From NCBI GenBank assembly GCA_041690595.1, contig JAWLHB010000012.1, positions 36,785-100,784 of the forward strand: a stretch of 64,000 nucleotides of DNA, given 5' to 3'. The notes below the pieces were generated by a model. It was not told where the DNA came from. It did no database searches and saw nothing but the letters and a program-made list of their open reading frames with translations. The position numbers and the translations under genes were made by a program. This DNA comes from Lentisphaeria bacterium. GTDB taxonomy: Bacteria; Verrucomicrobiota; Lentisphaeria; JABSQK01; JAWLHB01. Of the stretch, positions 39,061 through 57,672 are shown in pieces; within the stretch, counting starts at the first letter, position 1; the number at the start of each line of letters is the position of its first letter.

Positions 39061-39108
39061 GGCCTCCCGGCCACACCATCGCCCATGATGCGTGGCGACC
39101 GGGAGGCC
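39061..39108 (+). promoter_or_regulatory. Perfect 10-bp inverted repeat GGCCTCCCGG...CCGGGAGGCC enclosing the first ATG of the sensor-kinase ORF in its loop, followed by a T-rich run. Possible ilvD terminator and/or translational control element
   Basis: Read directly from the sequence. An inner imperfect pairing TCGCC/GGCGA extends the stem. Confidence 0.4.
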
Positions 39109-42100
39109 AGGGTTCTGGTTTACCCGAAGGCAGCAATTCCCGGCATGATTCCCAAGACGGCCCATCCACGCGCGCAGGATACCACCCTCAAGCTGGCCTT
39201 CATTGTCTTGGGATTGTCACTGTTGCCCAGCCTCTTTCTCAGCATGGGGCTGCTGGAGTTCAACCTCAAGCTGCCCGTGATCAGCGAAGTCTTCCGCGTC
39301 ACCGGCAGCGACTTCGCCCGCATGGAGATCGTCTATGAAGCGATGGCGACCAGCTTCGTCAGCACCCTGCTGACGTGGTCCACCTTCTGCATCGCCATCA
39401 TTACTGCCGCGCTGGCCATTCTCCACTTCTACATCGAACGGGATGCCGCCACCCCGATCATTGGCATTGCCTTCTTCTGCGTCGCCATCCTCGAGGCGAT
39501 CTTCACCATCTTCTCCGCTCAGCTCTTTCAGTACCAGGTCGGTCTTGAGCGGATGTTGCCGGCGTTGTGGACGAGCGGGCGGCTGCTGCATGCCGCCATC
39601 ATGATCGGCGGTGCCAGCTATGTACTCTGGCGCGGCACCAAACGCTTCGAAGGGCAAATCAGCGTGGTGCTGGTCGGCTGCGTCGTCTTTGCCTGCATCG
39701 CCGGTCTCGTCACGCAGACCGTCCTTCCCCATGCCGAATGGCTGCCCCAGATGATCTATCCCGATGAGGTGGTCAGCCGCCCCTTCGACCTCATCCCACT
39801 GGGCCTGTATGCCATGGCCGGTCTCCTTATCTATCCCCGCTTTCACCGCAAGGTCGGCAGCACCTTCTCCCTCGCCCTCATCCTCAGCGTCATTCCCGAC
39901 ATCGTCACCCAAATCCACATGGCCTTCGGCTCGCGAGTCCTCTTCGACGACCATTACATTGTGGCCGGCCTCCTCAAGAATTTCGCCTACATGATCCCCC
40001 TCGTGGGACTCATGTGGAACTACATGCACACCCATCGCAAGGTCCAGGACAACGTCGCCAAGCTGGAACGGGAGATGGAAGAGCGCTCCCGTGCCGAGGC
40101 CAACTGGGCCGAAAGCGAACGGCGCCTCCGCAACTTCCTCGACAACGCCAGAGATCTCATCCAGATCACCAGCGACGCCGGCGAATTTCGCTTCGTCAAT
40201 CGCGCCTGGCAGAAAGCCCTCGGCTATGACGATGATGCCCTGCGGAAGCTCCGTCTGGAGAGCATCGTCGTGCCTGGCGAACGCGACCTGATCCGCGACT
40301 ACTTCCACAAGGTCCTCCATTCCCGCGAGGACGAAGACGCCGGCGAGATCGTCGTCCACCTCCTCGCTCAGGATGGCACCGAGATTCTCGCCGAAGGGAC
40401 AGCCAATCCCCTTTATGATGAAGACCGCACCCCGGCCATCTATGCCAGCTTCCGGGATATCACCGAGCGCCACCGCGCCCTCGAAAGCCTGCGCACCACT
40501 CAGGGAGAACTCGACCGCTTCTTCTCGCTCTCCGTCGACATGCTTTGCATCGTCGACTGCGACGGCGTCCTCAAGCGCGTCAGCCCCGCCTGGACCGAAG
40601 TTCTGGGCTACCAGCAGCGCGAACTCGAGGAACGCCGATGCGTCGAACTCATTCATCCCGATGAACGGGCCGCCACCCTGCGGGCCTTCAGTCAGCTTCA
40701 GGAGGGCACCACCCGCGTCTCCTTCGAATGCCGCCTCATCGGCGCCGACGGCAAGGAGAAATGGTTCAATTGGGCGGCCTGCATGTACCCGGAGCGCAAG
40801 CTCATCTATGCCGCCGTCCGCGACGAAACAGAACGCAAGCGTTTCGAGGCGGAGCTGATCAACGCCAAGCTCGAGGCCGACGGCGCCAACCAGTCCAAGA
40901 GCGCCTTCCTCGCCAGCATGAGCCACGAAATCCGCACGCCACTCAATGCCATCCTCGGCATGGCCGACCTGCTCGGCGAAGCGGATCTCCCCGCCGACCA
41001 GCGCAAGTACGTCGACGTCCTCAAAGGCTCCGGCTCTTCGCTCCTCAACCTGATCAACGACATCCTCGACCTCTCCAAGGTCGAGGCAGGACAGCTCGAG
41101 ATCGAAGCCATCGAGTTCGAGCTGCACGAGCTCGTAGAAAATGTCGCCCAGTTGCTCAGCACACGCGCCGACGAGAAGGGCGTGCAGTTGCTGGTGCATA
41201 TCGAGCGCGAGCTGCCGCAGCGGGTGGTCGGCGATCCCGGTCGCCTCCGCCAGATCCTCATCAACCTCATCGGCAATGCCATCAAGTTCACCGAACGCGG
41301 CGAAGTCTGTATCAAGGCGGAACGGGGCAAGCGAGAGGGGGATACCATGCAACTGCTCTTCAGCGTCGCCGACACTGGCATCGGCATTCCCGCCGACCGC
41401 ATCGACCGCGTCTTCGAGAGCTTTACCCAGGCAGACAGTTCTGTCGCCCGCAAGTATGGCGGCACCGGGCTTGGCCTCGCCATCAGCAAGCGCCTGGTTG
41501 CCATGATGGGGGGCACCATCAACGCGGAAAGCACGGTCGGCGAGGGCACCACCTTCCACTTCTCCGTCCAGATTGGTCTACCCGACTTGGAGAGTCATCC
41601 CTCCACCATCAAGATGATCATGCCCCCACCCGTCATTCGCGGCACCCGCGCCATGATCATCGACGACAACCTGACCAGCCTGAAGATCCTGGAGAGCCTC
41701 CTCTCTGAACTCAAGCTCGACGTCTCGCTGGCGGAAGACGTGGAATCGGCCATGCAGACAATGGAGGCAGCGCAACAGGCGCAAAAACCCTACAAGTACG
41801 TCCTGATCGACTCGGGCGGTGTCAACCTTCATGGCCTGGGCGCGGTCGGCCGCGTGCGCAATGCTCAGCTGGCCGAGATCGTTATGGTGATGGTATCGTC
41901 TCATCGGGCGCATGAGGTCAAGGCTGCCCTGCGGCGTCATCCGGGCATCATCTACCTCATCAAACCGATACACCGCGGCGAGTTGTATCGCGCCTTCGCC
42001 ACTCGCATGGAGCGCCCAAAACGCCTCACCTCACCTTCGAGCATCCCTCACGCGCAGCCCCCTCCCCCGCCCGCCGCGAAGGAGACCAAACCCTCCATGC

Positions 42101-42498
42101 GCATCATGCTTGCCGAAGACACCGAAGACAACCGCGTCCTCTTCACCATCTACCTCAAGTCCACGCCACACACCGTCGACATCGCCAGAAACGGCTGTGA
42201 AGCAGTCGACCTCTTCCGTCAGAATCACTATGACCTGATTCTGATGGACATCGAGATGCCCGAGATGAACGGCTATGATGCCACCGCCGAGATCCGCCGC
42301 ATCGAAGAGGAGCGCCTGGCCGGGGAACCGGACCGCGAGCCTGTGCCCATCATCGCCTTGACTGCCCATGCGATGAATGCCGACAAAGAGAAATGTCTCG
42401 CCTCCGGCTTCGACCTCTTCCTTACCAAGCCCATCCGCAAGAGCGCCCTGCTCGAGACGATCAACGACTATCAGCCGGATGCCGCCCCACCCTCGTGA
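39085..42498 (+). CDS. Hybrid sensor histidine kinase/response regulator: multi-TM N-terminal sensor, two PAS-like regions, HisKA, HATPase_c, a degenerate receiver and a canonical C-terminal receiver
   Basis: ASMSHEIRTPLNAILGMADLL (H-box), GTGLGLAISKRLV (G2), C-terminal MRIMLAEDTEDNRVL...DLILMDIEMPEMNGY receiver. Start uncertain: 39085 lies inside a hairpin and 39145 is an alternative. Confidence 0.85.
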   Translation: MMRGDREARVLVYPKAAIPGMIPKTAHPRAQDTTLKLAFIVLGLSLLPSLFLSMGLLEFNLKLPVISEVFRVTGSDFARMEIVYEAMATSFVSTLLTWSTFCIAIITAALAILHFYIERDAATPIIGIAFFCVAILEAIFTIFSAQLFQYQVGLERMLPALWTSGRLLHAAIMIGGASYVLWRGTKRFEGQISVVLVGCVVFACIAGLVTQTVLPHAEWLPQMIYPDEVVSRPFDLIPLGLYAMAGLLIYPRFHRKVGSTFSLALILSVIPDIVTQIHMAFGSRVLFDDHYIVAGLLKNFAYMIPLVGLMWNYMHTHRKVQDNVAKLEREMEERSRAEANWAESERRLRNFLDNARDLIQITSDAGEFRFVNRAWQKALGYDDDALRKLRLESIVVPGERDLIRDYFHKVLHSREDEDAGEIVVHLLAQDGTEILAEGTANPLYDEDRTPAIYASFRDITERHRALESLRTTQGELDRFFSLSVDMLCIVDCDGVLKRVSPAWTEVLGYQQRELEERRCVELIHPDERAATLRAFSQLQEGTTRVSFECRLIGADGKEKWFNWAACMYPERKLIYAAVRDETERKRFEAELINAKLEADGANQSKSAFLASMSHEIRTPLNAILGMADLLGEADLPADQRKYVDVLKGSGSSLLNLINDILDLSKVEAGQLEIEAIEFELHELVENVAQLLSTRADEKGVQLLVHIERELPQRVVGDPGRLRQILINLIGNAIKFTERGEVCIKAERGKREGDTMQLLFSVADTGIGIPADRIDRVFESFTQADSSVARKYGGTGLGLAISKRLVAMMGGTINAESTVGEGTTFHFSVQIGLPDLESHPSTIKMIMPPPVIRGTRAMIIDDNLTSLKILESLLSELKLDVSLAEDVESAMQTMEAAQQAQKPYKYVLIDSGGVNLHGLGAVGRVRNAQLAEIVMVMVSSHRAHEVKAALRRHPGIIYLIKPIHRGELYRAFATRMERPKRLTSPSSIPHAQPPPPPAAKETKPSMRIMLAEDTEDNRVLFTIYLKSTPHTVDIARNGCEAVDLFRQNHYDLILMDIEMPEMNGYDATAEIRRIEEERLAGEPDREPVPIIALTAHAMNADKEKCLASGFDLFLTKPIRKSALLETINDYQPDAAPPS

Positions 42499-43459: not shown

Positions 43460-45445
43460 ATGACAGCATCCGATCTCTCGACAAAGAAGTTAGCCATGTA
43501 TGAGGCCTCCGCCCGCCTCGACCTCCTCACCCCGCCCCGACCCGCCACCGATGACGAGCTTGCCCAGGCCGCCGAGATCCGCGATGGCAGCATCCGCTTC
43601 AATGCCAATCAACCCGCCGATGTTCCCAAGACCCTCCTCCTCGTCGGCAGGAAAATGATCGATTGGAGCGGCGGCCATCTCCATCACCAGGAATGGCCAA
43701 CCCAGTTGAGTCGCTTCTTCATGCTCGGCCCCCTCATGAAAGCCTACCGGGCAACCGGCGACGCCGCCTTCGCCGAAGCCGCCCACGATTACATCGATGA
43801 CTGGATCGACAGCTTCGACGCAGAAGACATCGGCCTCCGGGGCAACACCTGCATGGATATCGGCATCCGTCTCGGTACCCACGGCGGTGGCGGCTGGGCG
43901 CCGGCCCTTGCCCTCTTCATGGATATTTGGAGCGATGCCTTCATTGACAAGGTTCTCCGCTCCATCGAGCAACAGGCACAAATCCTCTGGAAGCGCGGCA
44001 TTCCCTCCAGACCATGGGGAAACCATCGCATCTTCGGTTTGGACGGCCTCCTTCACGTCTGCCTCCGCCTGCCTTTCCTGCCTGACGCCGACCAGATGCT
44101 GGAGTGCGCCCGAAACGGACTCCAGCACGCCGCCAAAAGCCAGTTCCTCGAAGATGGCGCGCACATCGAAGCCACTCTCGGCTATCATCAGCACATGGCG
44201 CAGACCTTCATCTACATGCACCGGCTCGGCCAGGCCTTTCCTGAGCTGGGCATCAACCTGCCGACCGACCGCCTCCTCAAAGCCGCCGAGTATTACCTGC
44301 ATACCCAGCCCACCGGTATCAACGATACCTCTGCCTCCTGGCAGGATCGCGCCTGCCCCGACGCCTGGGCAACCGCGCGCGCCTGGCGGGAAGCGCTCAC
44401 CGGGGTGGCCGATCCCACGTGGCAGCCTGCCCGCGATGCCCACTTCGCCAGCGTCGGCCAGTGCTTTGCCCGCTCCTCATGGGAGCCCGGTGCCGACTTC
44501 CTCGCCTTCGATGCCGGCCCCTATTCCGGTGCACACGCGCATCTTGCCAGGCTGGGCCTGGTCTTCCGTTCCGGCGGCCGCCTCTGGATTGCCGATCCCG
44601 GCACCTTCGACTACGAAATGTCCAATCCATATGCCATCTACGGCCGCTCCACCCCCGCCCACTCCACCCTCAACCTCAATGGATTGAATCAGGGGCTCGG
44701 CGATGCGCGGATGCCCCAGGCCGTCATCCGTGACGACCTCGTCTTCCTGCACGGGATCTATCCCGGCGGCTACTGGAGCGGCGAGTATTCCTGGGGCTTC
44801 CAGCAGGGGCTGGGCACCGGCATCCATGGGCGCCATGAGCGTCTGGTCCTCTGGATCCGCGACGACTATCTGCTTGTCTTCGATGCCCTCATGGGCGATC
44901 GCGGCAGTACCGTCGAGAATGTCTGGCAGATGGCGCCAGTCAAGGGCTGGACGCACGATCCCGAGACCCTCTCCTGGCAATCGCGCGGCGAACCCGTCAA
45001 TTTCCACCTGCAGATGCTTCTTCCTCCCGGCGATGTACGGATGCAGATTCACCAAGGCGAGCAGGATCCCCTGCGCGGCTGGTTCTGCGAAGCCTACTCC
45101 AAGGGCTTTATCCCCGCGCCTCAGATCGTCTTCCGCTACGACACCGACTCCACCTTCCATGCCACCTTGGCCATGCCCCTCAGCGAAGGACGCCAACCGC
45201 CAGTCGTGCGAAGCTCCGCCGCCGCCGGCGACCGCGAGTTGGAGCTTGCCTGGCCGGATGGCAGCGTCGACTGGATCGGCATCTCCCAGAGCCTCTGCGT
45301 ACCTCTGGGCGAAGATGGACCCGCCGTCACCGACAGCCCCCTCGTCTGGATCCGCCTCGATCCCGAAGGCACCCCCCGCCGCCACTTCATGATGAATGGC
45401 ACCTACCTGCGTTTCCGCGGCCAGACCCTCGTCAGCGCCACCTGA
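43460..45445 (+). CDS. Heparinase II/III-like polysaccharide lyase family protein
   Basis: FDAGPYSGAHAHLARLGLVFRSGGRLWIADPGTFDY matches the Hepar_II_III GHAHxD...DPGTxxY core. AGGAA lies 8 nt upstream of the ATG. Confidence 0.65.
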   Translation: MTASDLSTKKLAMYEASARLDLLTPPRPATDDELAQAAEIRDGSIRFNANQPADVPKTLLLVGRKMIDWSGGHLHHQEWPTQLSRFFMLGPLMKAYRATGDAAFAEAAHDYIDDWIDSFDAEDIGLRGNTCMDIGIRLGTHGGGGWAPALALFMDIWSDAFIDKVLRSIEQQAQILWKRGIPSRPWGNHRIFGLDGLLHVCLRLPFLPDADQMLECARNGLQHAAKSQFLEDGAHIEATLGYHQHMAQTFIYMHRLGQAFPELGINLPTDRLLKAAEYYLHTQPTGINDTSASWQDRACPDAWATARAWREALTGVADPTWQPARDAHFASVGQCFARSSWEPGADFLAFDAGPYSGAHAHLARLGLVFRSGGRLWIADPGTFDYEMSNPYAIYGRSTPAHSTLNLNGLNQGLGDARMPQAVIRDDLVFLHGIYPGGYWSGEYSWGFQQGLGTGIHGRHERLVLWIRDDYLLVFDALMGDRGSTVENVWQMAPVKGWTHDPETLSWQSRGEPVNFHLQMLLPPGDVRMQIHQGEQDPLRGWFCEAYSKGFIPAPQIVFRYDTDSTFHATLAMPLSEGRQPPVVRSSAAAGDRELELAWPDGSVDWIGISQSLCVPLGEDGPAVTDSPLVWIRLDPEGTPRRHFMMNGTYLRFRGQTLVSAT

Positions 45446-45510: not shown

Positions 45511-46779
45511 TCAGAACTTGTAGATCGCGTCCATCTGGTAGAGGTTCGCCTCATTCTCCCCCTCGATTTGCTCGAGAAGCATGGCCGTGGCACCTAGTGA
45601 GAAGTTCTTGGTGAGCTTGTAGCTGGCGCTCAACTTGTGGCCTTCCACATTCGTGTTGTAGAGCCCGGCGGTATCGCCGAAGTCGGAATCCTTGAGGAAA
45701 GGCGGCGCCGAATCGGCCTCCACATAGCCGTAGGCATAGCCCAGGCTCCAACTGCCGACCTTTGCGCCGATGCCGGCCGTCCAACCCAGATCCTCATCTT
45801 CAGGCGTCAACCCTGACACATTGCTGGCAGTGCCGTCCGCGCCAAAGTTGCTCCAGACGTCGCCGAAGAGCGACAGGGTCGCCTTGTCCAGCTTCAGCGA
45901 AAGCTCCCCGTACAGGTCGCCGATATGGTAGTCATACTCCGAACTGAACGGCGTGAGCAGCTCGCTGGTCTGCGCATCATAGTAGTAGTATGCCGCCGCA
46001 ACCTTCGCCTTCATACCCTTGCCAAGATCGCCACCCCAGCCGAGCTGCGCTGCCACCAGCGATGCATTGTCGCCGTTGCTGTCGCCGTTATCGCTGGCAT
46101 AGAGCACCTTGTATGCGCCCATCGTGGCAAAGAACCCGGCCATGTCACCAGTCACCGTTGCGCCAGCGGGCCGGACATCGCCGTCCCAAAGCAGAAATGA
46201 CGAGACAAAGGGGTTCGACTGCTGGCCCAGGATCACCGCCACCTTGCCGTCATCACCCTTCCACGTGTGCTTCGCATAGGCATAGTCGATCCGCAGGTCG
46301 CCGGTATCGAAGGGGCCACTGTCCGACCAAGTGTCGTTTGTACTCGTCGCGTCCGATCCGCCCGACGCCACCCCGACCCCGATCTCCCAGCCTTCCTCGG
46401 CGGCCCAAACGCCCCCAAGCCGGAGCCGGGTACGGAAGCGATCGCGAGTCGTCTCCGTGCTCTTGTCCACATCCCGTGCCTCATACCGCAGGCGAAGATC
46501 GCCCTTGATCTTCAGATTCGAGATGTGATCGCTCAGCTTGATGCCCCCGCCACTGCTACGCTGCGAAGGATCCACCGCCCGATCCACTTCCTCGCGGATC
46601 TGTCGCGAAAGCTGACCCTGATTCTCATTGAGCTGTCGACGCATGCTCTGGATCTCCGACTGCTGCTGCCGGATCTCCTGTTGCATCTGCTCGATCTTCT
46701 TCAGGATCTCATCATTCTCAATCGCCCACAACGAGGCGCTCAGCGCCAAGGTCACAGTCAGTACAAAAAATCTCTTCAT
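45511..46779 (-). CDS. Outer-membrane beta-barrel porin-like protein with N-terminal Gln-rich coiled coil
   Basis: Signal peptide MKRFFVLTVTLALSASLWA, alternating amphipathic beta-strand pattern, C-terminal aromatic residue (…IYKF). Confidence 0.6.
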   Translation of the reverse strand: MKRFFVLTVTLALSASLWAIENDEILKKIEQMQQEIRQQQSEIQSMRRQLNENQGQLSRQIREEVDRAVDPSQRSSGGGIKLSDHISNLKIKGDLRLRYEARDVDKSTETTRDRFRTRLRLGGVWAAEEGWEIGVGVASGGSDATSTNDTWSDSGPFDTGDLRIDYAYAKHTWKGDDGKVAVILGQQSNPFVSSFLLWDGDVRPAGATVTGDMAGFFATMGAYKVLYASDNGDSNGDNASLVAAQLGWGGDLGKGMKAKVAAAYYYYDAQTSELLTPFSSEYDYHIGDLYGELSLKLDKATLSLFGDVWSNFGADGTASNVSGLTPEDEDLGWTAGIGAKVGSWSLGYAYGYVEADSAPPFLKDSDFGDTAGLYNTNVEGHKLSASYKLTKNFSLGATAMLLEQIEGENEANLYQMDAIYKF

Positions 46780-47214
46780 GATTTTCCCTCACTCCTTAAG
46801 GTATTACCGAGATGATCTTCACAACACCCTCGCCTCTCAACTGGGGTTTGACGAGCCCCCGCACGTTCCACACCAGCCTCCCTTGGTTTCGCGTTCCACT
46901 GCATCTGGTTCAGCAAACGAGTATACCCTAAGGCTCTCTCAGCACTCCCGCTCGGCGCTACGGTTAAGACCCCGTAAAGATCCCGCTAATCCCCCATTTG
47001 CCCCTCACCCAGCATTGCTCCAACGGAAGGAGGAGGACACTCGACAACCGCAACAGGCACTCAAACATCCTGTACATTTCGATGTTCTTCAAGCGTCAAC
47101 GGACAGGACACCCACTTTGATCCCCTGAGCGTGAGAAATTGGGTGCTCTGCTGGTTTCTTCTGGAACGCAACCTATACTAAACGTCGTTGAAGCATCCAC
47201 ACTATAACGAGAGC

Positions 47215-48270
47215 ATGAACATGGCAATTGGTCATCTGGAGGCCAGACTATTCACCGTTTTCTCGAAGATCGACTTGGACTTCTCTCCCGGTATCAACGT
47301 CATCATCGGAGAGAATAGCACGGGCAAATCACACCTGATGAAATTGCTTTACGCCGTGAGCCAAGTGCTCTTCACCTCCGAGAAAGAAGGTGAGCGCAAG
47401 CTGCTTGAAGCCGAACTCCACAAGAAACTGGTGAACACGTTTAAGCCGGATGAGGGAAAGCTGGGGCGGCTTGTGCAACGTAGCCGTGGTCGAGCCACAG
47501 CGAGAATGAATATCAGGTTCGGCACTGGTGGTTTCAGCTTTCGATACACCACGCTCTCCAATCTTGCCATTGAGCAGGTCGGTGCAAGACAAGAGGATAA
47601 TCCTATCTTCATACCCTCTCGGGAGGTCCTTGCCATCTACCCCGGCTTTGTGCAAGCCTACGAGAATCGGGAACTGGCATTCGATGAAACGTACCGGGAC
47701 ATATGCGTCGCGTTGAGCGGCTCCCTTACGCGAGGCCCACGGCAAGAGAAGATCCAGGACCTCGTATCGCCACTTGAAAAGCGTCTCGGTGGTAAGGTCG
47801 TACTGGACAACGATCGCTTCTTCGTCAAGGCCAGAGATGGTAATATCGAGGCACACTTGCTCGCGGAAGGTCTTCGCAAGCTCGCCAGTATAGTCTTCCT
47901 CATCAACAATGGCTCGCTCACCGAGCGCAGTATTCTTTTCTGGGACGAACCGGAAGCCAATTTGAATCCCACCCTCGTCAAGCTGCTCTGCGATGTCCTG
48001 CGCCAGCTTGCCAATAGCGGCATGCAAATTTTCCTCGCTAGCCACGATTACCTGCTCACTCAGGAGCTGGCCTTGGCATCCGAGTACAAGACAGAGCCCC
48101 ATGTGCCAATCCGCTTCTTTGCCCATAGCCGCAACGCAGAGGGCCACGTTGACATAGAACAAGCCGATGATCTCGCCGAGTTACGTAACAACGCCATTCT
48201 GGAGGAGTTCGCCGCACACTACGACCGGGAAGCCATGCTCTTTGCAGAACGTGCGGAGGTCCAGAGATGA
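47215..48270 (+). CDS. AAA_21/ABC-type (SMC/RecF-like) ATPase of the kind found in abortive-infection/defence modules
   Basis: Walker A GENSTGKS, signature-like LAEGLRKL, Walker B SILFWDEPEANLNP, H-loop IFLASHD. The track ORF starts at TTG 47188. ATG 47215 or 47221 is more likely. Visibly lower G+C than the flanks. Confidence 0.7.
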   Translation: MNMAIGHLEARLFTVFSKIDLDFSPGINVIIGENSTGKSHLMKLLYAVSQVLFTSEKEGERKLLEAELHKKLVNTFKPDEGKLGRLVQRSRGRATARMNIRFGTGGFSFRYTTLSNLAIEQVGARQEDNPIFIPSREVLAIYPGFVQAYENRELAFDETYRDICVALSGSLTRGPRQEKIQDLVSPLEKRLGGKVVLDNDRFFVKARDGNIEAHLLAEGLRKLASIVFLINNGSLTERSILFWDEPEANLNPTLVKLLCDVLRQLANSGMQIFLASHDYLLTQELALASEYKTEPHVPIRFFAHSRNAEGHVDIEQADDLAELRNNAILEEFAAHYDREAMLFAERAEVQR

Positions 48271-48842
48271 GCCAGGAAATAGTCGAAAAGCAGATAAAGT
48301 ACGTCTTTGGGGATTCCTGGCGAATTTTTAAGTACGACGAGCATCCTTTTTATACCGGCCGGCTGGTTCCACTAGCGGGAAAGGTCAAGAAGAAGACCGT
48401 CTCCACCACCGGCATCGATCTTGCTGGAAGCTGCGGCAATCGTCTATTCCTAGTCGAAATCAAGGATTTCGCAGGATTTCCACGTGAGCGAGCACGCATC
48501 ACCAGCGGCGAACTGGCACTGGAAATCGCCATCAAGGTGCGTGACTCCATCGCCGGCCTGATCGCCGGGGCTCACCACCCCAACTGCAAGCCTCACAAGA
48601 CATGGGAGGCCGTCGCTGATCACCTCTGCAACGCTCCCCACGCCATTCAAATTATTCTTTGGCTCGAGGTCGACATGCTGCCACCAGCCCTCAAGCATAA
48701 GCAGATGATGAGCACCTTTGGCAACCAGCTCAAGCAAAACATTCGCAATTGGTTACCAGCTAGCGTCTTCGTGCTCAATTTGCAGACGTACGAATCCATA
48801 ATACCAGACATGGAAGCTTTCCGCTTGAGCATGCCGGGATGA
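48267..48842 (+). CDS. Small (191 aa) protein of unknown family with a PD-(D/E)xK-like motif (putative nuclease partner of the ATPase)
   Basis: Start overlaps the ATPase stop (ATGA). TGIDLAGSCGNRLFLVEIKDF gives D-x12-E-x-K spacing typical of restriction-endonuclease-fold nucleases, with an upstream acidic YDEH. I recognised no other family. Confidence 0.5.
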   Translation: MSQEIVEKQIKYVFGDSWRIFKYDEHPFYTGRLVPLAGKVKKKTVSTTGIDLAGSCGNRLFLVEIKDFAGFPRERARITSGELALEIAIKVRDSIAGLIAGAHHPNCKPHKTWEAVADHLCNAPHAIQIILWLEVDMLPPALKHKQMMSTFGNQLKQNIRNWLPASVFVLNLQTYESIIPDMEAFRLSMPG

Positions 48843-48944
48843 ACTGGCCACTTTCGAATCGGCCAATACCAGCATCGCGAAACTGTCGGCAAAACTTCAT
48901 CGTAGTGTTTGACCTGCAACTCGCAGAAGATGCGATCTTTCGGC

Positions 48945-50312
48945 TCAGGAGCCTGTGCGCTTTGCGAGGCGGAGGGTGAAGGTGGAACCCTTTTCGAGCT
49001 GGCTTTCGACGGTGACGGTGCCACCGTGGACGCGCATGATGTGTTTCACGATCGACAAGCCAAGGCCGGTGCCGCCGCTCTGCCGGTCGCGGGATCGGTC
49101 CACGCGGTGAAAGCGCTCGAAGATGCGCTCCAAGTGTTCGCGGGGAATGCCGATGCCTTCGTCGCGCACCGTCAGGACGGCATGCTGCTGCTCCTCGCGC
49201 AGGCGAATCGTCACGGTCGCGCCATCCGGGCTGTACTTCACCGCATTGTCGATCAGATTGGCGATGGCCTGCTCGAGGAGGCGATGATTTGCGTAGACCT
49301 GGCATGGATCCAGCTCGACGATGGCGGCGATATTGCGCTCGCGCATCTTCGCTTCGTAAGGGCGCAGGGCATTGGCTGTCGTCACGGCCAGATCCTTCCG
49401 CTCGAACTCCTGGGCCACCCATCGGTCGGCTTGCTCCAGGCGCGAGAGGGTCAGCAGGTCATCGACGATGGCGTTGAGGCGCTCCGCCTGCTGCGCGATA
49501 ATGGTGACGAAGCGCATGGCCTGCTCGGGCGCCCCCTCCAGGCAGCCGCCCAGAGTTTCGATGAAGCCCTTGATGGAGGTGATCGGCGTTTTCAGCTCGT
49601 GGGAGACATTCGCCACGAACTCTTTGCGCATCTCTTCGAGGCGGCGCACCCGGGTGACGTCGTGCATCACCACCAGCGCTCCGGGGGCGGCCCCCTGCTC
49701 ATGGACGAATCGTACACCCGATAGCCGATAGACCGTGACAACGTCCGCCGTACCGCGAACCTCCATCTCCTGCTGCAGGTGATCGGCACCCTCCGTAAGC
49801 AGCTCATCGACGAAGTGGGTAAAGGTGGCATTGCGCACCACGGAAAAGAGGGGTCGTCCGGCAATGGATTCCTCATCGGACAAGCCGAAATAGAGATGGG
49901 CCGCCTGGTTCATCGCCAGGAGGTTCACCTCGTTATCGACCGCCAGAATGCCTTCTCGCATACCGGTGAAGAGGGCGATCCACTGCTGCTTCTCCAGTTG
50001 GAGATCGCTCACCTGGGTCTCCAGCGCTTCCGCCATCTCGTCGAAGGCAGCGGTCAAGGGAGCCAGCTCCAGCCACGGATTGGCCGGACTTCGCGCGCGC
50101 CAATCCCCCTTTCCCAGGCGCAGCAGCCGATCCTCGAGTTGCGCCTGCCAGTAGGTCAGGAGCCGGATCAGGAGGAGACTGACGAGCAAAATGCCGATAA
50201 TCGCCGTCACCGCCCCGATGAAGGGGCTCCAGAACAAGGCGCAGCCGCCCGCCAGCAGCAGAACCAGCAGGAGTCGATTCGCCAACCACCAGTATAGGGA
50301 TTGCCTGCGCAT
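48945..50312 (-). CDS. phoR: Phosphate-regulon sensor histidine kinase
   Basis: TM-PAS-HisKA (VANVSHELKTPITSIKGF)-HATPase. Immediately downstream of phoB/phoU/pst genes. Confidence 0.8.
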   Translation of the reverse strand: MRRQSLYWWLANRLLLVLLLAGGCALFWSPFIGAVTAIIGILLVSLLLIRLLTYWQAQLEDRLLRLGKGDWRARSPANPWLELAPLTAAFDEMAEALETQVSDLQLEKQQWIALFTGMREGILAVDNEVNLLAMNQAAHLYFGLSDEESIAGRPLFSVVRNATFTHFVDELLTEGADHLQQEMEVRGTADVVTVYRLSGVRFVHEQGAAPGALVVMHDVTRVRRLEEMRKEFVANVSHELKTPITSIKGFIETLGGCLEGAPEQAMRFVTIIAQQAERLNAIVDDLLTLSRLEQADRWVAQEFERKDLAVTTANALRPYEAKMRERNIAAIVELDPCQVYANHRLLEQAIANLIDNAVKYSPDGATVTIRLREEQQHAVLTVRDEGIGIPREHLERIFERFHRVDRSRDRQSGGTGLGLSIVKHIMRVHGGTVTVESQLEKGSTFTLRLAKRTGS

Positions 50313-50315
50313 GAA

Positions 50316-51011
50316 TCAATCCTTGAACCTGTAGCCGACTCCCCGGACCGTTTCGATCACCACTGCGTGATCGCCCAGTTTACGCCTCAGGGAGACGATG
50401 TGGACATCCACCGTTCGCTCGGTGATCAGGACGTCCTCGCCCTGCGCCTCGTCGATGATGCGCTGCCGTGTGTAGACACGCCCTGGGTTGGACGCCAGGA
50501 AGCGCAGGATCTTGAACTCGATCGGCGTCAAACAGGCTTCCTGTCCATGTACCAGCACTTCGTGCCGATTGGGGTTGATGGTGATGCTGCCGCGCGTCAG
50601 CACCGGCTGATCCTCGGTCGACGCGGGCTCACTCTCGGCCCGACGCCGCAGGACCGCCTTGAGGCGCGCCAGGAGCACCCTAGGGCTAAATGGCTTGGTG
50701 ACATAGTCATCGGCCCCGACTCCCAGCCCGATCACCTCATCCGTCTCCTCGCTTTTCGCGGTCAGCATGACTACCGGAACTCGCTTCAGGCGGTCGTCGC
50801 TGCGCAGCTTGTAGCATACCTGATAGCCATCGATGCCGGGCAGCATGAGGTCGAGGATGATCAGATCGGGTGGGTGGGCCTGGGCCAGGCGCAGGCCAAG
50901 CTCGCCATCGCCAGCCAGCTCCACGTCATAGCCGTCATTCTCCAGATTGAATTTGAGCAGCTCGCGGATCGACTCTTCGTCTTCAACGACCAGCACTCTG
51001 GTTTTTGCCAT
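50316..51011 (-). CDS. phoB: Phosphate-regulon response regulator (OmpR/PhoB winged-helix)
   Basis: Receiver (VLVVEDEESIRELL...DLIILDLMLPGIDG) plus OmpR-type C-terminal domain (…VSLRRKLGDHAVVIETVRGVGYRF). Confidence 0.8.
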   Translation of the reverse strand: MAKTRVLVVEDEESIRELLKFNLENDGYDVELAGDGELGLRLAQAHPPDLIILDLMLPGIDGYQVCYKLRSDDRLKRVPVVMLTAKSEETDEVIGLGVGADDYVTKPFSPRVLLARLKAVLRRRAESEPASTEDQPVLTRGSITINPNRHEVLVHGQEACLTPIEFKILRFLASNPGRVYTRQRIIDEAQGEDVLITERTVDVHIVSLRRKLGDHAVVIETVRGVGYRFKD

Positions 51012-51716
51012 CTATCCCTCCCTTGCCTGCCGTCTGGGCAGGTCATTCCTGTTGTTCTCGTCTTCCAGATGGTGACGAATGATGCGTCCTTCCACCATGT
51101 AGAAGACATCCTCCGCGATATTGGTGGCATAGTCGGCGATACGCTCAACGCTGCGGGAGACAGAGATCAGGAAAAGATAAGCCGGCGCGTTCTCCGGCTC
51201 CGCGATCACCTGCCGCCGAAGCCCGTGGATCAACTCCACATTCAATTCATCAATAGCGTCATCCTGCCGGCAGACCTGCCGCGCCAGGGTTGAATCCGCA
51301 TTGACCATCGCATTCAGGCTGAGCCGCACCTGGTTGAGTGCCTTGGTGAAAATGGTGCGAAAACGATCGGGCACCGTGACTGGATCGAGCTTGGCGATCT
51401 CGATCACGTACTCGGCGATGTTGACCGACAGATCCCCCATCCGCTCCAGGTCGTTGTTCATCTTGAGGACCCCGACCACCATGCGCAGATCGGCGGCCAC
51501 CGGCTGATAGAGCGCCATGATCTTCAGGCAGTCCTCCTCGATGTCCACCTCCAACTCGTCAATCACGGTATCGTTGGCGACGACCGCCCGGGCCTTGGCG
51601 GTATCGAGATCGGCCAGGGCCTCGTAACTCAGTTCGATGCTCTGCTCCACCTCGGCGCTAAGCTCGACGATGCGCTTCTTGAGCTTAGTGGTTTCGCGCT
51701 GCAAATGTGTTATCAT
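51012..51716 (-). CDS. phoU: Phosphate-transport system regulatory protein PhoU
   Basis: Two PhoU repeats (…DDAIDELNVEL…, …DLERMGDLSVNIAEYV…). Confidence 0.85.
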   Translation of the reverse strand: MITHLQRETTKLKKRIVELSAEVEQSIELSYEALADLDTAKARAVVANDTVIDELEVDIEEDCLKIMALYQPVAADLRMVVGVLKMNNDLERMGDLSVNIAEYVIEIAKLDPVTVPDRFRTIFTKALNQVRLSLNAMVNADSTLARQVCRQDDAIDELNVELIHGLRRQVIAEPENAPAYLFLISVSRSVERIADYATNIAEDVFYMVEGRIIRHHLEDENNRNDLPRRQAREG

Positions 51717-51737
51717 GCCATATCTACCTTGTGAGGG

Positions 51738-52523
51738 TTATCCAAAGCGTCCAGAGATGTAGTCTTCCGTCTGTCTCTCGCCGGGATTGCGGAAGATCTT
51801 CTCGGTGAAATCGTACTCGATGAGCTTGCCCAAGTAAAAGAATGCGGTACGATCGGAAACGCGTGATGCCTGCTGCATGTTGTGCGTCACAATAACGATG
51901 GTAAAGTCTTGCTTCAACTCCAGGATGAGTTCCTCGATGCGACTGGTGGCGATGGGATCGAGGGCGCTGCATGGTTCGTCCATGAGAACGATCTCGGGCT
52001 CGTTGGCAATCGCTCTTGCGATGCAGAGGCGCTGCATCTGCCCGCCCGACATGCTCAGCGCGCTCTCGTCCAGCCGGTCTTTGACCTCGTCCCAGAGAGC
52101 TGCCGAACGCAGGCTGCGCTCGACGACCTCGTCCAGATCGCGCTTCTGTTTGCGACCGGCCACCCGCAGCCCGAAGACCACATTTTCATAGATCGACTTG
52201 GGAAAGGGATTCGACTTCTGGAAGACCATCCCCACCCGTCGGCGCAGCCCGATGACATCACGCAGTGGATCGTAGACGCTGTGCCCGTTGATCAGAATAT
52301 CCCCGTGATGATGAACCCCGTCGATCAGGTCGTTCATGCGGTTAATGCTCCGCAGCAGGGTAGATTTACCGCACCCGGACGGGCCGATGAAGGCGACGAT
52401 TTCGCGCTCCGGAATCTTCAGATTGTTCCCGAAGAGAACCTGATTATCGCCGTACCAGAAGTCGTAGTTCTGGATATCGATGATCGGGTTCTCGATGGTG
52501 GTTGCCGCACTCTTGTTGATCAT
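51738..52523 (-). CDS. pstB: Phosphate ABC transporter ATP-binding protein
   Basis: [25 protein letters not shown]-type signature, Walker B. ATG 52523 with upstream GGAG preferred over 52556. Confidence 0.9.
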
Positions 52524-52536
52524 GCTTGTAACTCCG

Positions 52537-54246
52537 TCAAAAAGCGCTGGTTGCATACTTGCGCCGCAAGTGTTCTCGAATGATGATGGCGGTCAGGTTG
52601 AGCACCACCACCAGCGCGATAAGCAGAAGCGCCGTCGCGAAAACCATGGGTTTGGCCGCCTCGGCGTCAGGTGATTGAAAACCGAGATCGTAGATGTGAA
52701 AGCCCAGGTGCATGAACTTCTGGTCGAGGTGGATAAACGGATAGTTGCTGTTGACGGGCAGTTCCGGGGCAATCTTCACCACGCCTACCAGCATCAGCGG
52801 CGCCACCTCGCCCGCGCCGCGGGCCATGGCCAGAATGACGCCGGTCAGGACGCCGGGCGCCGCCGCCGGCAGAACGACCCGCTGAATGGTCTGCCAACGC
52901 GAAGCGCCGCAGGCCAGGGCGCCTTCCCGCGTTCCCCGCGGCACCGCCGCCAGCGCTTCCTCCGAGGCGACGATGACCACTGGCACCGTCAGCAGCGCCA
53001 GCGTCAGCGAGGCCCAAAGAATGCCTCCCGTGCCGAAGGTGGCGGTCGGCAGCCGGTCCGCATAGAACAGCTCGTCGATCGTACCACCCATCCCCCAGAC
53101 AAAGAAGCCGAGTCCGAAGACACCGAAGACGATCGAGGGCACGCCAGCCAGATTGTTGATGGCGATGCGTACCATGGCGACCATCGTCCCCTGTTTGGCA
53201 TACTCCCGCAGGTAGATCGCGGCCACCACCCCGAAAGGGGTCACCAGCATGCTCATCAGTACCGTCATCACGAAGGTACCGAAGATAGCCGGCCAGATGC
53301 CCCCTTCGGTATTCGCCTCCCGCGGCTCCTCCGAGACGAAGCGCCATATCTGCCAGAGGAAGTGGCCCAGCCGCTGCAGCAGGTTCATCTCGTTCGGGTA
53401 GGTGTAGTCGATCACCTCCCCCATGCTGATCTCGTGTTCGCCACCGCTGACCAGCCGATAAACCAGCCGCTGCCGGTTCAGCTTTTCGCGTAATTCTTTC
53501 AATTGCGCTTCGAGGACCTCGAACTCCACCTGCAACGCGGCCAGGCGGGCTGTCAGCGCCTCCCGTTTCGGCGTGTCGGTCGCACCGCCCGATGCCTCGG
53601 CACGATTCATGGAGCGCAGCTCCAGGTTGATCGCGGTCATCGCCGTATTGATGCGGCCGATCTCCTTTCGATCCAGCTGGTGAATCTGCCGCCGCCCATC
53701 GCTCACCTCATCCAGTGCCGCCGCCAGCGCCTCGCGAAAGCCGTCCGACGCGGCTTTTATCTCGGTGCCGTCAGCCGAACGCAGGGCCACGGGCAACGCG
53801 AGCACATCGCCATACTCAGCCCGTTCGATGGCGATGGCATCCGGCAGCAGTTCCATCTCCGCGATGAAGCTGGTGTCAATCCAGATAAAGGAGCCGTCAT
53901 AGAGCTCGCGGCTGCCAATGAAGAACTGCGTCTCTTTCTGAGCGGGAGCGAGATCTCCTTGCGCATCCATCTCCCGGCTCATCTTCCGGCGGCTCTCCAC
54001 GAGCACTCCCGCGAAGCGCGGCTCCTCGCCGAATCGTCGCTGCAGCGCCGTCAGCACCGGCTCTGGAAGATCCTTCGCCAGTTCCACGGCCATGATCGGC
54101 TTCGGCCAGAAGACGTTGAGCCCCTTGACGACGATCAGCCCCAGCATCAGGACAATCATGAGCAGCCCGATCGTGATGCCCATCGACGTCAGCCATACCC
54201 AGGCTTCCCCCTTCGGCTGAACCAACTGTTTGCCTTTCTCAGTCAT
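52537..54246 (-). CDS. pstA: Phosphate ABC transporter permease PstA, long form with N-terminal coiled-coil/periplasmic insertion
   Basis: C-terminal region matches PstA (…[17 protein letters not shown]…). ATG 54246 with GGGAG 7 nt upstream chosen. Confidence 0.8.
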
Positions 54247-54265
54247 ACAATCTCCCGCCCCGAAG

Positions 54266-56542
54266 CTAGATAGTCTTGTACTTGCCACGCAGGTGCTGAC
54301 GCAGCAGCTCTGCCATGGTATTGACGATGAAGGTCATGAGGAAGAGCAGAAATCCACCCAGAAAGAGTGTGCGGTAGAGGGTTCCTTCTTTCGGCGCTTC
54401 CGGCAGCTCGACGGCGATATTGGCGGAGAGCGTGCGCATGCCCGAGAAGATGTTGAGGTCGAGGAGCGGGGTATTGCCCGTCGCCATCAGGACAATCATG
54501 GTCTCGCCAACCGCCCGCCCCAGGCCGATCATAATCGCGGAGAAGATGCCCGCCGACGCGGTGGGCAGCACCACCCTTAACGCCGTCTGCCAGCGACTAG
54601 CGCCCAATGCCAGCGAGGCGCTGCTCAGGCTCCGCGGCACGTTCGACAGCGCATCCTCCGCGATGGTGAAGATGATCGGGATGACGGCGAAACCCATGAT
54701 AAAGCCGACCACCAGCGCATTGCGCTGCTCGAAGCGGTTCCCCGTCACCGCCGGCCACCAGAGTCGGAAATCAGCCACCTTCCGCCCGGCGTCCGTCTCG
54801 ATGACGAAAAAGATGCGCTCGATGACGGGTCCCAGATACCAGGCCGCGATCCAGGTCAGCACCAGGATCGGCAGAAAGCCGATGAACTCGAATCCATCGG
54901 GACAAAGCAGGCGTGTCCGCTTTGGCAGCCTTGACCAGAGCGCGCCAGAGAACATCGCTACCACGGGTATCGCGATCACGAAGAGCAGAAAGCTCGGCAC
55001 CCGCGTCTCGACGATCGGCGCCAGCCACAGCGCCGCCAGAAAACCCAGGACTACCGACGGCAGCGACGCCATGATCTCCATCGTCGGCTTCACGTAGCTC
55101 TTGAATTTGGGATGTTGAAACTGGGAGACGTATATCGCCCCCAGCAGCGCTATCGGCACCGCGAAGAGCAGCGCGTAGATCGTCCCCTTGAAGGTCCCGA
55201 CGATCAGCGGTATCATCGACAACTTCGGCTCGAAATCGTCGCTCGCGCCCGTTGACTGCCATTTGTACTCGGGCTCGGGATTTCCTTCGTACCAGATGCG
55301 GCTGAAGTAGGCGGCGAAGCCGGCTTCCGGATGGGGATCGTTCAGCGAGAAGAGGTGCAAGTTGGACTGATTATCGAGCAGCAGGATCCTGTCGTACTTG
55401 CCGGAGACTGCCGCCAGCCGCGGCTCATAGTCGAGCCGCTTCTTCCAGCGAACGGATGCCGTCGTCGCATAACGCAGGCTCACCTGGTTGCCATGGCCGA
55501 TAAGGAAGCCCTTGTTCCGCAAGCTTTTGGCGTAGACACTGGGCGCCCCTTCCAGCGGCGGAAACTCCTTCGTCTTTCCCCAGAGCATCTTGCCGACATC
55601 GTCGTGCATATAGAGGCTGAAGCCATAGCTCACCCCGTCGCTGTTGGTGAAGAGCACCGTCGTGTCGCCGAAGAGAAAGTTCATTTTTGCCAGCGGGGCA
55701 GCGTCGCTGCCCTCGAAGGGGCGAATCAGTTGCCGCAGCTCCACTTCGCCCGCCACAAACTGGAAGTAAGCCACCTCGTCGCGATCGTTCCGCACAAGGA
55801 TGCTGCGCCCATTCTGGCTGACCAGCACCTCTTGCGGCACACCGGGCAGCTCCGCCGTCAGATCCATCATCAGGCCGACTTCGATCTCCCCCGGCCCCAT
55901 CAGCGACATCGTCTGCGTCAGGGTGGCCATACGCAAGTGCCTCTCTCCGTCCGCGCCTTCCGTGATGCCGACGATCACCTTGCTCCGATCGGCCCCCGCA
56001 TAGGCGATCGCCAAAATCGCCTCGCCCCGCTCCCCCAGCGGATACATGTTGCCGGGCCGAAGCTCGACATCCACAACCCGGCTGCCTGTCGAGAAGTTGG
56101 CCGAGTAGACGATGTCCACGATGACGAACTCACCCAGCGCCGTTCCGTAGATCAACTGCTGCGTCTCCTGCCCATACGTCACCGAGGTCACCTGGTGATC
56201 GCGGAGGAAGTCAAGCTCTGGAACCAGCGTTTCCGTCCCTTCGTCGAGTCCCGGAAAGAGCAGCCGACCATCCCGGCGAAGAACGAAGGGCCGCTCGGTC
56301 CATTCATCCACGCCCAGCGCCAGGTAATCACCCGGGGGGATGGCCGCGGTGCGCAGTTCCTTGATCTGCGCACCGCGGAAGAGCGGCAGAATTTCAAGCA
56401 GGATGAAGACGAAGATGAGCATCACGGTGAGGATAACCAGAAGACCGCCCGCGCGGATGAACTGGTTCATGAACTTGTCCGCCATCAGCGTCACCTTCGA
56501 CGCCGCGAAGCGGTTCTCCCATTGCTTGTCTCGCTTCATCAT
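54266..56542 (-). CDS. pstC: Phosphate ABC transporter permease PstC, long form (~758 aa) with large extracytoplasmic insertion
   Basis: C-terminal permease core (…GLGRAVGETMIVLMATGN…) is typical of PstC. The N-terminal half is an extra beta-rich domain. Confidence 0.8.
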   Translation of the reverse strand: MMKRDKQWENRFAASKVTLMADKFMNQFIRAGGLLVILTVMLIFVFILLEILPLFRGAQIKELRTAAIPPGDYLALGVDEWTERPFVLRRDGRLLFPGLDEGTETLVPELDFLRDHQVTSVTYGQETQQLIYGTALGEFVIVDIVYSANFSTGSRVVDVELRPGNMYPLGERGEAILAIAYAGADRSKVIVGITEGADGERHLRMATLTQTMSLMGPGEIEVGLMMDLTAELPGVPQEVLVSQNGRSILVRNDRDEVAYFQFVAGEVELRQLIRPFEGSDAAPLAKMNFLFGDTTVLFTNSDGVSYGFSLYMHDDVGKMLWGKTKEFPPLEGAPSVYAKSLRNKGFLIGHGNQVSLRYATTASVRWKKRLDYEPRLAAVSGKYDRILLLDNQSNLHLFSLNDPHPEAGFAAYFSRIWYEGNPEPEYKWQSTGASDDFEPKLSMIPLIVGTFKGTIYALLFAVPIALLGAIYVSQFQHPKFKSYVKPTMEIMASLPSVVLGFLAALWLAPIVETRVPSFLLFVIAIPVVAMFSGALWSRLPKRTRLLCPDGFEFIGFLPILVLTWIAAWYLGPVIERIFFVIETDAGRKVADFRLWWPAVTGNRFEQRNALVVGFIMGFAVIPIIFTIAEDALSNVPRSLSSASLALGASRWQTALRVVLPTASAGIFSAIMIGLGRAVGETMIVLMATGNTPLLDLNIFSGMRTLSANIAVELPEAPKEGTLYRTLFLGGFLLFLMTFIVNTMAELLRQHLRGKYKTI

Positions 56543-56560
56543 CCGATATCGACCCCGCGG

Positions 56561-57517
56561 TTACTGGAGTTGGTCGAGTGTCTGTTTGGCAATGGAAGCC
56601 GGGATGGGGAAATAGCCATCCTTGACGACGATTTCCTGCCCTTCCTTGCTCAGGACGAAGGTGAAGAACTCCTTCACCAGCAGATCGATCTTTTCGTTCG
56701 GCGAATCATTGACATAGACATAGAGGAAACGCGCCAGCGGATACTTGCCGTTCAGCGCATTCTCGGATGTGGGCTCAGCCCCCTCGCCGCCTTCCTTGGA
56801 CAGCTTTACCGCCCGCACACCGGAGGTCATGTAGCCGATTCCCGAGTAACCGATGCCACCCAGATCGCTCGCGATCCCCTGCACCACGGCGGAAGATCCG
56901 GGCTGCTCCTTGACCGTCCCGCGGAAGTCCCCCTTGGCGAGCGCGTTCTCCTTGAAGAAGCCGTAGGTTCCCGAGGCGCTGTTGCGGCCATAGAGGGAGA
57001 TCGGCAGGGCTGCCCACTGTCCCGTCAGCCCCAGATCGCCCCAGTTCGTTATCTCCTTGCCCCCGAGCTTGCGGGTGCTCGAGAACATGCCGTCGATCTC
57101 CTTCATGCTCAACGATTCAATCGGGTTGTCCTTGTGCACGAAAACGGCCAGCGCGTCAATGGCCACCTTGATCTCCGTCGGTTTGTAGCCGTGCTGCGCC
57201 TCGAACTTGTCCAGCTCGGTCGATTTCATGGCGCGGCTCATGGGCCCCAGTTGCGCGGTACCCTCGATCAATGCCGGTGGGGCGGTGGACGATCCCTTGC
57301 CTTCGATCCCGATGCGGACATTGGGGTAGATCTTGCGGAACCCCTCCGCCCAGAGCGCCATCAGGTTGTTCAGCGTATCCGAGCCCACGCTGTTGAGATT
57401 GCCAGACACGCCACTGACCGGCTTGTACGACGGAAGATCCGGATCGACCTTCACTTGCGCGCTCGCCAGCCCCAGCGTCAACACCATGACATAAAGAGAA
57501 ACTATCACTTTCTTCAT
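56561..57517 (-). CDS. pstS: Phosphate-binding protein PstS (periplasmic)
   Basis: Signal peptide MKKVIVSLYVMVLTLGLASA from ATG 57517 (AGGAG 8 nt upstream). …SGTYGFF… PBP motif. Confidence 0.85.
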   Translation of the reverse strand: MKKVIVSLYVMVLTLGLASAQVKVDPDLPSYKPVSGVSGNLNSVGSDTLNNLMALWAEGFRKIYPNVRIGIEGKGSSTAPPALIEGTAQLGPMSRAMKSTELDKFEAQHGYKPTEIKVAIDALAVFVHKDNPIESLSMKEIDGMFSSTRKLGGKEITNWGDLGLTGQWAALPISLYGRNSASGTYGFFKENALAKGDFRGTVKEQPGSSAVVQGIASDLGGIGYSGIGYMTSGVRAVKLSKEGGEGAEPTSENALNGKYPLARFLYVYVNDSPNEKIDLLVKEFFTFVLSKEGQEIVVKDGYFPIPASIAKQTLDQLQ

Positions 57518-57642
57518 TTGCAGGACTCCTCTACCAAATGTAGGTTTCGCAGGATTCGAGAAGGGGATAGATGATATCATCCCTTCCAGAAGTAGTATGC
57601 CCCCACTCTGCCTGGCTACCATGGCTTCAGCGCAAGGGATGA

Positions 57643-57672
57643 GTTAAGGAACCGTTAAGGAATTATTAAGAC
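57643..57672. promoter_or_regulatory. Pho-box-like element: GTTAAGGAA repeated at 11-bp phase (GTTAAGGAAcc GTTAAGGAAtt aTTAAGacg) in the divergent pstS/nagA-like promoter region
   Basis: Two exact 9-mers and a third partial copy at exact 11-bp spacing (57643, 57654, 57665), ~125-150 bp upstream of the pstS start. Confidence 0.45.

Follow-up and report, generated by a model that had tools for sequence, protein, structure and literature searches.

The 64,000-nucleotide (nt) stretch of contig JAWLHB010000012.1 from a Lentisphaeria bacterium (the window, by which the whole stretch is meant) carries two overlapping genes, one for an ATPase and one for a small protein, that very probably constitute a stand-alone, horizontally acquired and intact HEC-02 anti-phage module. 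In such a module an ATP-binding cassette (ABC) ATPase, HEC-02A, is paired with a NERD-like PD-(D/E)xK nuclease, HEC-02B. The pair is not a new system, because the HEC-02 family has already been described and experimentally validated. In this respect the initial annotation, which presented the two genes as an uncharacterised candidate that fits none of the known systems, has to be corrected: both proteins match the HEC-02 models of PADLOC as well as the tested pair from Dickeya. The defence role proposed there is the best reading of the locus, in a genomic context that varies among relatives and is sometimes rich in defence genes.

Assignment of the gene pair to HEC-02

HEC-02 (Hma-embedded candidate 02) was described by Payne et al. 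(bioRxiv 10.1101/2024.01.29.577857) as a system that occurs inside Hma systems but is also widespread independently of them. It has been included in PADLOC since 2023, and its validation was reported in the 2024 preprint: in Escherichia coli, HEC-02 of Dickeya dianthicola NCPPB 3534 caused orders-of-magnitude drops in plaque formation by at least two coliphages, and both genes were needed for protection (10.1101/2024.01.29.577857). The same work had already assigned HEC-02B to the NERD-like PD-(D/E)xK nucleases (10.1101/2024.01.29.577857).

In PADLOC-DB v2, which served as the database of defence models, residues 3-340 of the window ATPase align with positions 1-330 of the 337-position profile PDLC04213 (E 9.8e-99), and further matches are found to PDLC04146 (1.9e-91) and PDLC04214 (1.3e-67). 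The small protein matches PDLC04228 (E 7.7e-18, residues 5-182 on positions 3-195 of 199) and PDLC04145 (E 7.8e-17). The models of AriA, GajA, mad3, NsnB, PD-T4-4_A, AbiLi and Old reach only the P-loop or Walker B segments of the ATPase, with E values of 1e-18 or weaker. The A and B labels of the HEC-02 models are inconsistent in PADLOC: the ATPase matches models named HEC-02A (PDLC04213, PDLC04214) as well as HEC-02B (PDLC04146), and the small protein matches models named HEC-02B (PDLC04228, PDLC04220) as well as HEC-02A (PDLC04145). Therefore, component names in automated output need care.

The sequences of the tested Dickeya pair (WP_024108366.1 and WP_024108365.1) were taken from Table S2 of the preprint (10.1101/2024.01.29.577857). 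The window ATPase shares 37% identity with Dickeya HEC-02A over 335 residues (E 8e-74), and the small protein shares 28% identity with Dickeya HEC-02B over its full length (BLASTP, E 9e-17), with window D51 and E64-x-K66 aligned to the D and the EVK of the tested protein. When Dickeya HEC-02B was compared with a family profile built on the window protein, hhalign returned a probability of 100%. The two pairs have in common the gene order, the overlap of the genes, the ABC motifs, the D...ExK motif and near-full-length homology. They differ in their hosts: the window comes from a high-G+C organism, and the nearest ATPase relatives with a named source belong to Verrucomicrobiota and Planctomycetota, not to Enterobacterales. 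Unlike the HEC-02 pairs embedded in Hma, BREX or restriction–modification (RM) systems, the window pair is found on its own, with a porin gene on one side and phoR on the other. As a divergent, stand-alone HEC-02 member in a poorly sampled high-G+C bacterium, the locus represents no new class.

Motifs and predicted structures of the two proteins

The initial annotation had recognised in the larger protein a Walker A motif (GENSTGKS), a Walker B motif (ILFWDEPE) and an H-loop (ASHD) and had classified it as an AAA_21/ABC-type ATPase. All three motifs were located, and Pfam supports the classification with matches to AAA_21 (6e-17) and AAA_15 (5e-15). The segment AEGLRK probably corresponds to the ABC signature motif, as its position directly before Walker B suggests. 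In the C-terminal helix, N326 and Y336 are invariant across 58 family members, the same set in which the motif residues were compared (Table 1). The structure model of the ATPase, with a pLDDT (predicted local distance difference test) of 89.4 and a predicted template modelling score (pTM) of 0.90, consists of an ABC head without a coiled coil. The predicted fold is clearly of the ABC and not of the AAA+ type, and structure comparison places it nearest to the heads of SMC and Rad50 proteins and to the PtuA ATPases of Septu and retrons. A sequence search of the PDB with the ATPase retrieved only generic nucleotide-binding domains of ABC transporters, and a PHROGs search gave only unannotated ATPase families for this protein and no match for the small one.

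The small protein matches no family in a Pfam scan. The D-x12-ExK motif noted at the outset proved to be the conserved core of its family: it reads D51-x12-E64-x-K66, with GIDLAG beginning at residue 49 and LVEIKDF at residue 62. In alignments of 32 and 64 members, D24, D51, E64, K66 and K90 are invariant, while D67, R92, D93 and E134 vary little or not at all. The AlphaFold model (pLDDT 87.3, pTM 0.85) contains, in this order, an N-terminal three-stranded sheet, helix 27-38, strands 52-56 and 59-66, the long helix 80-102 and further beta-alpha-beta elements. It modestly supports a restriction-endonuclease-like fold, in which the aspartate would open one strand and the (D/E)xK motif would lie on the next. 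The expectation of a PD-(D/E)xK fold is thereby sustained at the level of the model, but not by the Foldseek search of this model against the PDB, which returned no significant match; the PDB sequence search likewise found no solved relative of the small protein.

As to the name, the window protein has no match to NERD (PF08378) at E <= 1 and so stays below the gathering threshold, and weak NERD matches are found in 32 of 64 relatives, with a best E value of 5.9e-4. The NERD label is thus regarded as a sign of distant relationship. As judged from these comparisons, the HEC-02B family is separate from NERD and without a Pfam model, and a few of its members match DUF6661. The window protein belongs to a longer subtype of about 180-195 residues. 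A word-indexed search with this protein recovered only the query itself, and its relatives had to be gathered with a full HMMER scan and by profile searching.

Given the Pfam description of AAA_21, which speaks of a "putative AbiEii toxin", and the format of a two-gene operon with small, overlapping genes, a toxin–antitoxin or AbiE-like module was also considered, in which one of the two proteins, either the ATPase or its small partner, would be the toxin and the other the antitoxin. However, neither protein carries an AbiEi antitoxin or AbiEii nucleotidyltransferase domain, and no AbiE model appears among the best 25 PADLOC matches of the ATPase or the three of the small protein. Moreover, the small protein retains a nuclease active site rather than a DNA-binding antitoxin fold, and the ATPase has a complete ABC catalytic set. 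The toxin–antitoxin explanation is accordingly held to be extremely improbable.

Conservation and distribution of the pair

In a scan that took a single genome from each species, 572 loci with a relative of the ATPase were found, the best 80 of which were examined. These 80 loci span Planctomycetota, Verrucomicrobiota, Myxococcota, Acidobacteriota, Chloroflexota, Bacteroidota, Cyanobacteria, Pseudomonadota, Actinomycetota and others, and the highest ATPase identity among the related genome loci listed is 54%. At 59 of the 80 loci, the open reading frame (ORF) directly downstream proved homologous to the small protein in a single-sequence phmmer search. With a profile search, a HEC-02B-family ORF was found in this position in 73 of them, without exception on the strand of the ATPase gene. 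A frameshift or truncation at the end of a contig seems to affect several of these copies. Co-occurrence of the homologues across genomes, which had been suggested as a check on the initial annotation, is borne out and extends across phyla. ORF calling indicated an overlap in 45 of 57 homologous pairs, by exactly ATGA in 24. Sequence change is faster in the small protein than in the ATPase, with a mean identity to the respective window protein of 31% versus 45%. Across loci, the identities of the two proteins correlate (Spearman 0.44, p 0.001), which is what inheritance of both genes as one unit would lead one to expect. By these comparisons, the two genes have been retained together in at least ten phyla.

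Conservation does not extend to the flanking genes: clustering of the 316 proteins encoded no more than three genes away gave a largest cross-locus group of 4. At some related loci the neighbours include type I, III and IIG methyltransferases, DrmMI/DrmD, PglX, HmaA/B/C, JetD and SoFic, and the defence systems found nearby comprise RM, BREX, DISARM, Hma and Wadjet. Homologues of the ATPase were also found on 10 plasmids and in 2 contigs labelled as phage. Cluster representatives number more than 4171 for the ATPase and more than 1725 for the small protein; a single-sequence search with the latter matches 461 clusters at 50% identity, and its nearest relative in the representative library is 42% identical. 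Both ORFs are real genes and did not arise by chance, since more than 4000 homologues of the ATPase and more than 1700 of the small protein exist.

Plasmid pLM6 of Methylomonas koyamae (locus L161, NZ_CP023670.1, 8998-10613) encodes an ATPase homologue with 38% identity and a 165-residue ORF inside a BREX-1 operon, between brxC and pglX, and a further gene annotated as "PDDEXK nuclease domain" lies between pglX and pglZ. The 165-residue ORF matches the HEC-02B profile in its N-terminal half only (probability 93%), and for this reason the pLM6 pair may be a distinct HEC-02 subtype.

The distribution also bears on whether the genes could be a housekeeping repair or recombination pair, that is, a RecF-, RecN- or SbcCD-like ATPase with a resolvase-type nuclease. 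Such a role would hardly account for the patchy occurrence across phyla without conserved synteny, the defence genes that adjoin related loci, the foreign G+C and GC3 (G+C at third codon positions) of the window pair, or the validation of a homologue as a defence system. The family scores speak against it as well, as the check for a housekeeping match raised in the initial annotation required: the NCBIfam RecF model TIGR00611 gives 21.6 bits against a cutoff of 172, the Rad50 models give 20-22 bits against cutoffs of 700-1000, and SMC_N remains under its gathering score (36.8 versus 40). A repair function is considered to have next to no likelihood.

The locus and its base composition

The positions of the two genes, their motifs and their neighbours are compiled in Table 1.

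Table 1. Features of the HEC-02 locus and its surroundings, in window coordinates.
Feature	Position	Strand	Remarks
Porin_5 porin gene	45511-46779	-	upstream neighbour; N-terminal coiled-coil-like segment
Low-G+C islet (0.534) between porin gene and phoR	46780..48944	.	435-nt upstream spacer, two genes and 102-nt downstream spacer
HEC-02A ATPase ORF	47188(TTG)/47215(ATG)..48270	+	351 residues counted from ATG 47215
Walker A / P-loop GENSTGKS, residues 32-39	47308..47331	+	G32, N34, G37, K38 invariant in 58 family members
ABC-signature-like AEGLRK, residues 217-222	47863..47880	+	E218, G219, R221, K222 invariant in 58 family members
Walker B and D-loop region ILFWDEPE, residues 240-247	47932..47955	+	L241, W243, D244, E245, P246, E247 invariant in 58 family members
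H-loop ASHD, residues 275-278	48037..48048	+	H277, D278 invariant in 58 family members
Shine-Dalgarno-like GGAGG for second gene, within 3' end of ATPase gene	48255..48259	+	read from sequence; putative function
ATGA start/stop overlap of the two genes (putative translational coupling)	48267..48270	+	ORF calling and sequence reading
HEC-02B small ORF	48267..48842	+	191 residues
D24, candidate first acidic active-site residue, just before helix 27-38	48336..48338	+	invariant; putative role
D51 ("D" of PD), start of strand 52-56	48417..48419	+	invariant; strand from model
E64-I-K66, (D/E)xK motif, end of strand 59-66	48456..48464	+	E64, K66 invariant; aligns with EVK of Dickeya HEC-02B
K90-V-R92-D93 (KVRD, family-specific), helix 80-102	48534..48545	+	K90 invariant; R92, D93 invariant or nearly so
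phoR-phoB-phoU-pstB-pstA-pstC-pstS	48945-57622	-	downstream neighbours

The arrangement of an ATPase gene and a 191-residue ORF joined by an ATGA overlap, which the initial annotation had proposed together with a lower-G+C islet between the porin gene and phoR, is reproduced by ORF calling. The true start of the ATPase gene is probably ATG 47221, because the identical NCBI protein (P0002) has 349 residues. The GGAGG sequence precedes the ATG of the second gene by 7 nt. A long antisense ORF at 47329-48162 (277 residues) was regarded as a shadow ORF arising from a high-G+C gene.

The islet, too, is borne out by the base composition: the G+C content of the gene pair is 0.537 compared with 0.612 +/- 0.020 across all 1628-nt segments of the window, and the ten such segments with the lowest G+C all start at 46601-47201 and cover the upstream spacer and the pair. 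The GC3 of the pair is 0.65 versus 0.74-0.82 for seven neighbouring genes. Both values indicate a foreign origin of the pair. Searches of the islet for a tRNA gene, an integrase and flanking direct or inverted repeats found none, and an Rfam search gave no match. In a scan of metagenomes with PhoR, made in search of an empty sister site, the nearest relative was 40% identical.

Several observations weigh against the assignment to an intact HEC-02 module. The only experimentally tested homologue is 28-37% identical and comes from a different phylum, and biochemical nuclease activity of any HEC-02B was not found in the searchable literature. The locus lies outside any defence island, adjoined by a porin gene and the pho/pst operon, and consensus scans of the locus for promoters and terminators gave none above the expectation from shuffled sequence. 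In the small protein, a lysine-rich insertion before D51 (KVKKKTVS, within residues 39-50), extra compared with most family members, is lineage-specific and lies in a loop of lower pLDDT, and residue 69 is an alanine (KDFA), where 84-90% of the family have an arginine (KDFR).

The lack of a recognisable sigma-70 promoter or terminator, the isolation of the locus and the R69A replacement could also be read as marks of a decaying or silent remnant, acquired by transfer, whose expression or function has since been lost. On the other hand, both ORFs are full-length and keep every residue that is invariant in the family, and the coupling signal formed by GGAGG and ATGA is intact. Furthermore, a consensus scan for sigma-70 promoters is ill-suited to promoters of non-proteobacterial type. 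Loss of function is thus regarded as very unlikely, and an intact HEC-02 module is the preferred reading.

Relation to other defence systems and proposed mechanism

The initial annotation had set the pair apart from Septu, PARIS and AbiE, and the Pfam and PADLOC scans agree. Septu, PARIS, Gabija, AbiL, AbiE, PD-T4-4 and RecF were each rejected on tests of family membership. Septu, including the PtuAB of retron I-A/Eco7, resembles the window pair in combining an ABC ATPase with a small nuclease and in the C-terminal helical extension of the ATPase. It differs in that PtuB is an HNH nuclease, whereas the small protein of the window has no HNH and a predicted restriction-endonuclease-like fold; moreover, no PtuA or PtuB model appears among the PADLOC matches listed, and identity in the structural alignment is about 14%. 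PD-T4-4 has been described as a nuclease–NTPase (nucleoside triphosphatase) system in which an ATPase acts with a PD-(D/E)xK nuclease and higher-order complexes are reported (10.1101/2025.07.10.664194). The likeness lies in the pairing of a P-loop/ABC-type NTPase with such a nuclease, but the window ATPase matches PD-T4-4_A only in part (E 2.7e-11, residues 177-285 of 351), and the small protein does not match the nuclease model. For PARIS (AriA-AriB), Gabija (GajA) and OLD, the small protein shows no TOPRIM or DUF4435 match, and the AriA and GajA models cover only short Walker A or Walker B segments of the ATPase. From NERD proteins, Upx, HamA of Hachiman, Can2/Card1 and NucC, HEC-02B differs by its own N-terminal three-stranded sheet and the KVRD helix.

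Neither a mechanistic paper nor a solved structure for HEC-02 was found in the searchable literature. Septu is the best available mechanistic model, because the architecture of the pair and the ATPase's C-terminal extension are alike. In Septu PtuAB, an oligomer of the ABC ATPase binds the nuclease via PtuA's C-terminal extension (PMC12819146). DNA nicking by PtuAB falls as ATP rises, and Gabija behaves similarly (PMC12819146). By analogy with Septu, the most likely mechanism is one in which the HEC-02 ATPase would detect infection and govern the activity of the nuclease effector.

In such a scheme, the HEC-02A and HEC-02B genes would be co-transcribed and translationally coupled through the internal GGAGG and the ATGA overlap. 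The two proteins would associate in a complex, with the ATPase serving as sensor and regulator and restraining the nuclease. Infection would alter the ATP-bound or oligomeric state of HEC-02A; candidate triggers are a protein or a DNA structure of the phage, or a drop in ATP. Released HEC-02B would then cut DNA through D24, D51, E64 and K66 together with a divalent metal, and this cutting would halt phage replication, possibly at the expense of the cell. The complex of HEC-02A and HEC-02B, the trigger, the substrate (DNA or RNA, of phage or host) and the abortive outcome are points that we only infer. It is also a possibility that HEC-02 has a trigger or substrate unlike those of Septu or Gabija.

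The target might instead be mobile DNA other than phage, if the pair mainly restricted plasmids or further mobile elements in the manner of Wadjet or Lamassu, SMC-like systems with an ABC ATPase that are directed at foreign or aberrant DNA, or stabilised a mobile element. The ATPase is ill-fitted to this, as it has 351 residues and consists of a head only, without the coiled-coil arms for DNA entrapment; in addition, the tested Dickeya homologue lowered phage plaquing. This explanation is considered unlikely, and an anti-phage function of the HEC-02 pair is preferred.

The value of the assignment lies mainly in annotation, as genes that are labelled "AAA family ATPase" and "hypothetical protein" can now be named as a HEC-02 defence pair. 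Names in the databases are misleading for other members of the family as well. Several HEC-02B homologues (P0198, P0223, P0235 and the tested WP_024108365.1) are misnamed "cysteinyl-tRNA synthetase", and HEC-02A homologues (P0066, P0030 and others) are misnamed "hemin importer ATP-binding subunit" or "energy-coupling factor transporter EcfA2". For the HEC-02 family, the survey adds the pairing in at least ten phyla and the invariant residue set of HEC-02B. Since the ATPase is structurally nearest to Septu PtuA, a concrete and testable mechanistic model for HEC-02 can be proposed, although the mechanism is no easier to test at the window locus than in the Dickeya system.

The phosphate gene cluster and possible Pho regulation

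The HEC-02 pair interrupts an apparently contiguous phosphate-starvation cluster on the - strand (45511-57622). This cluster holds two unusually long PstC/PstA-type permeases, of 758 and 583 residues. The 435-nt region upstream of the pair is shared with the divergently transcribed porin gene.

Direct 7-mer repeats with 11-bp periodicity (GTTAAGR) occur at 46963-46995 (+) and 57643-57671 (+). GTTAAGGaaccGTTAAGGaattATTAAGA is the site directly upstream of the pstS-like gene (56561-57622, - strand), and GTTAAGAccccGTAAAGAtcccGCTAATC is the one in the intergenic region that separates the porin gene from the HEC-02 ATPase gene. With at most one mismatch, GTTAAGRNNNNGTWAAGR occurs only at these two sites in the 64 kb compared with 0.03 expected, a pattern that was derived from the two sites after inspection. 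The E. coli-type Pho box consensus CTGTCAT-N4-CTGTCAT has no more matches in the window than expected by chance. The GTTAAGR repeat resembles a Pho box specific to this lineage, and its probable target is the porin gene, because the orientation of the porin gene relative to the repeat is the same as that of pstS. A PhoB box that would in addition drive the divergent HEC-02 operon of PVC (Planctomycetes–Verrucomicrobia–Chlamydiae) type, so that immunity would be switched on by phosphate starvation, is considered decidedly unlikely.

Upstream of the porin gene, the genes at 39085-42498 (+) and 43460-45445 (+) encode a hybrid histidine kinase of 1137 residues, with several PAS domains and HisKA, HATPase_c and receiver domains, and a heparinase II/III-like protein; both are unrelated to the pair. 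The heparinase-like gene and the Verrucomicrobiota and Planctomycetota labels of the nearest named ATPase relatives may fit a polysaccharide-degrading host of PVC type, which is our assumption.

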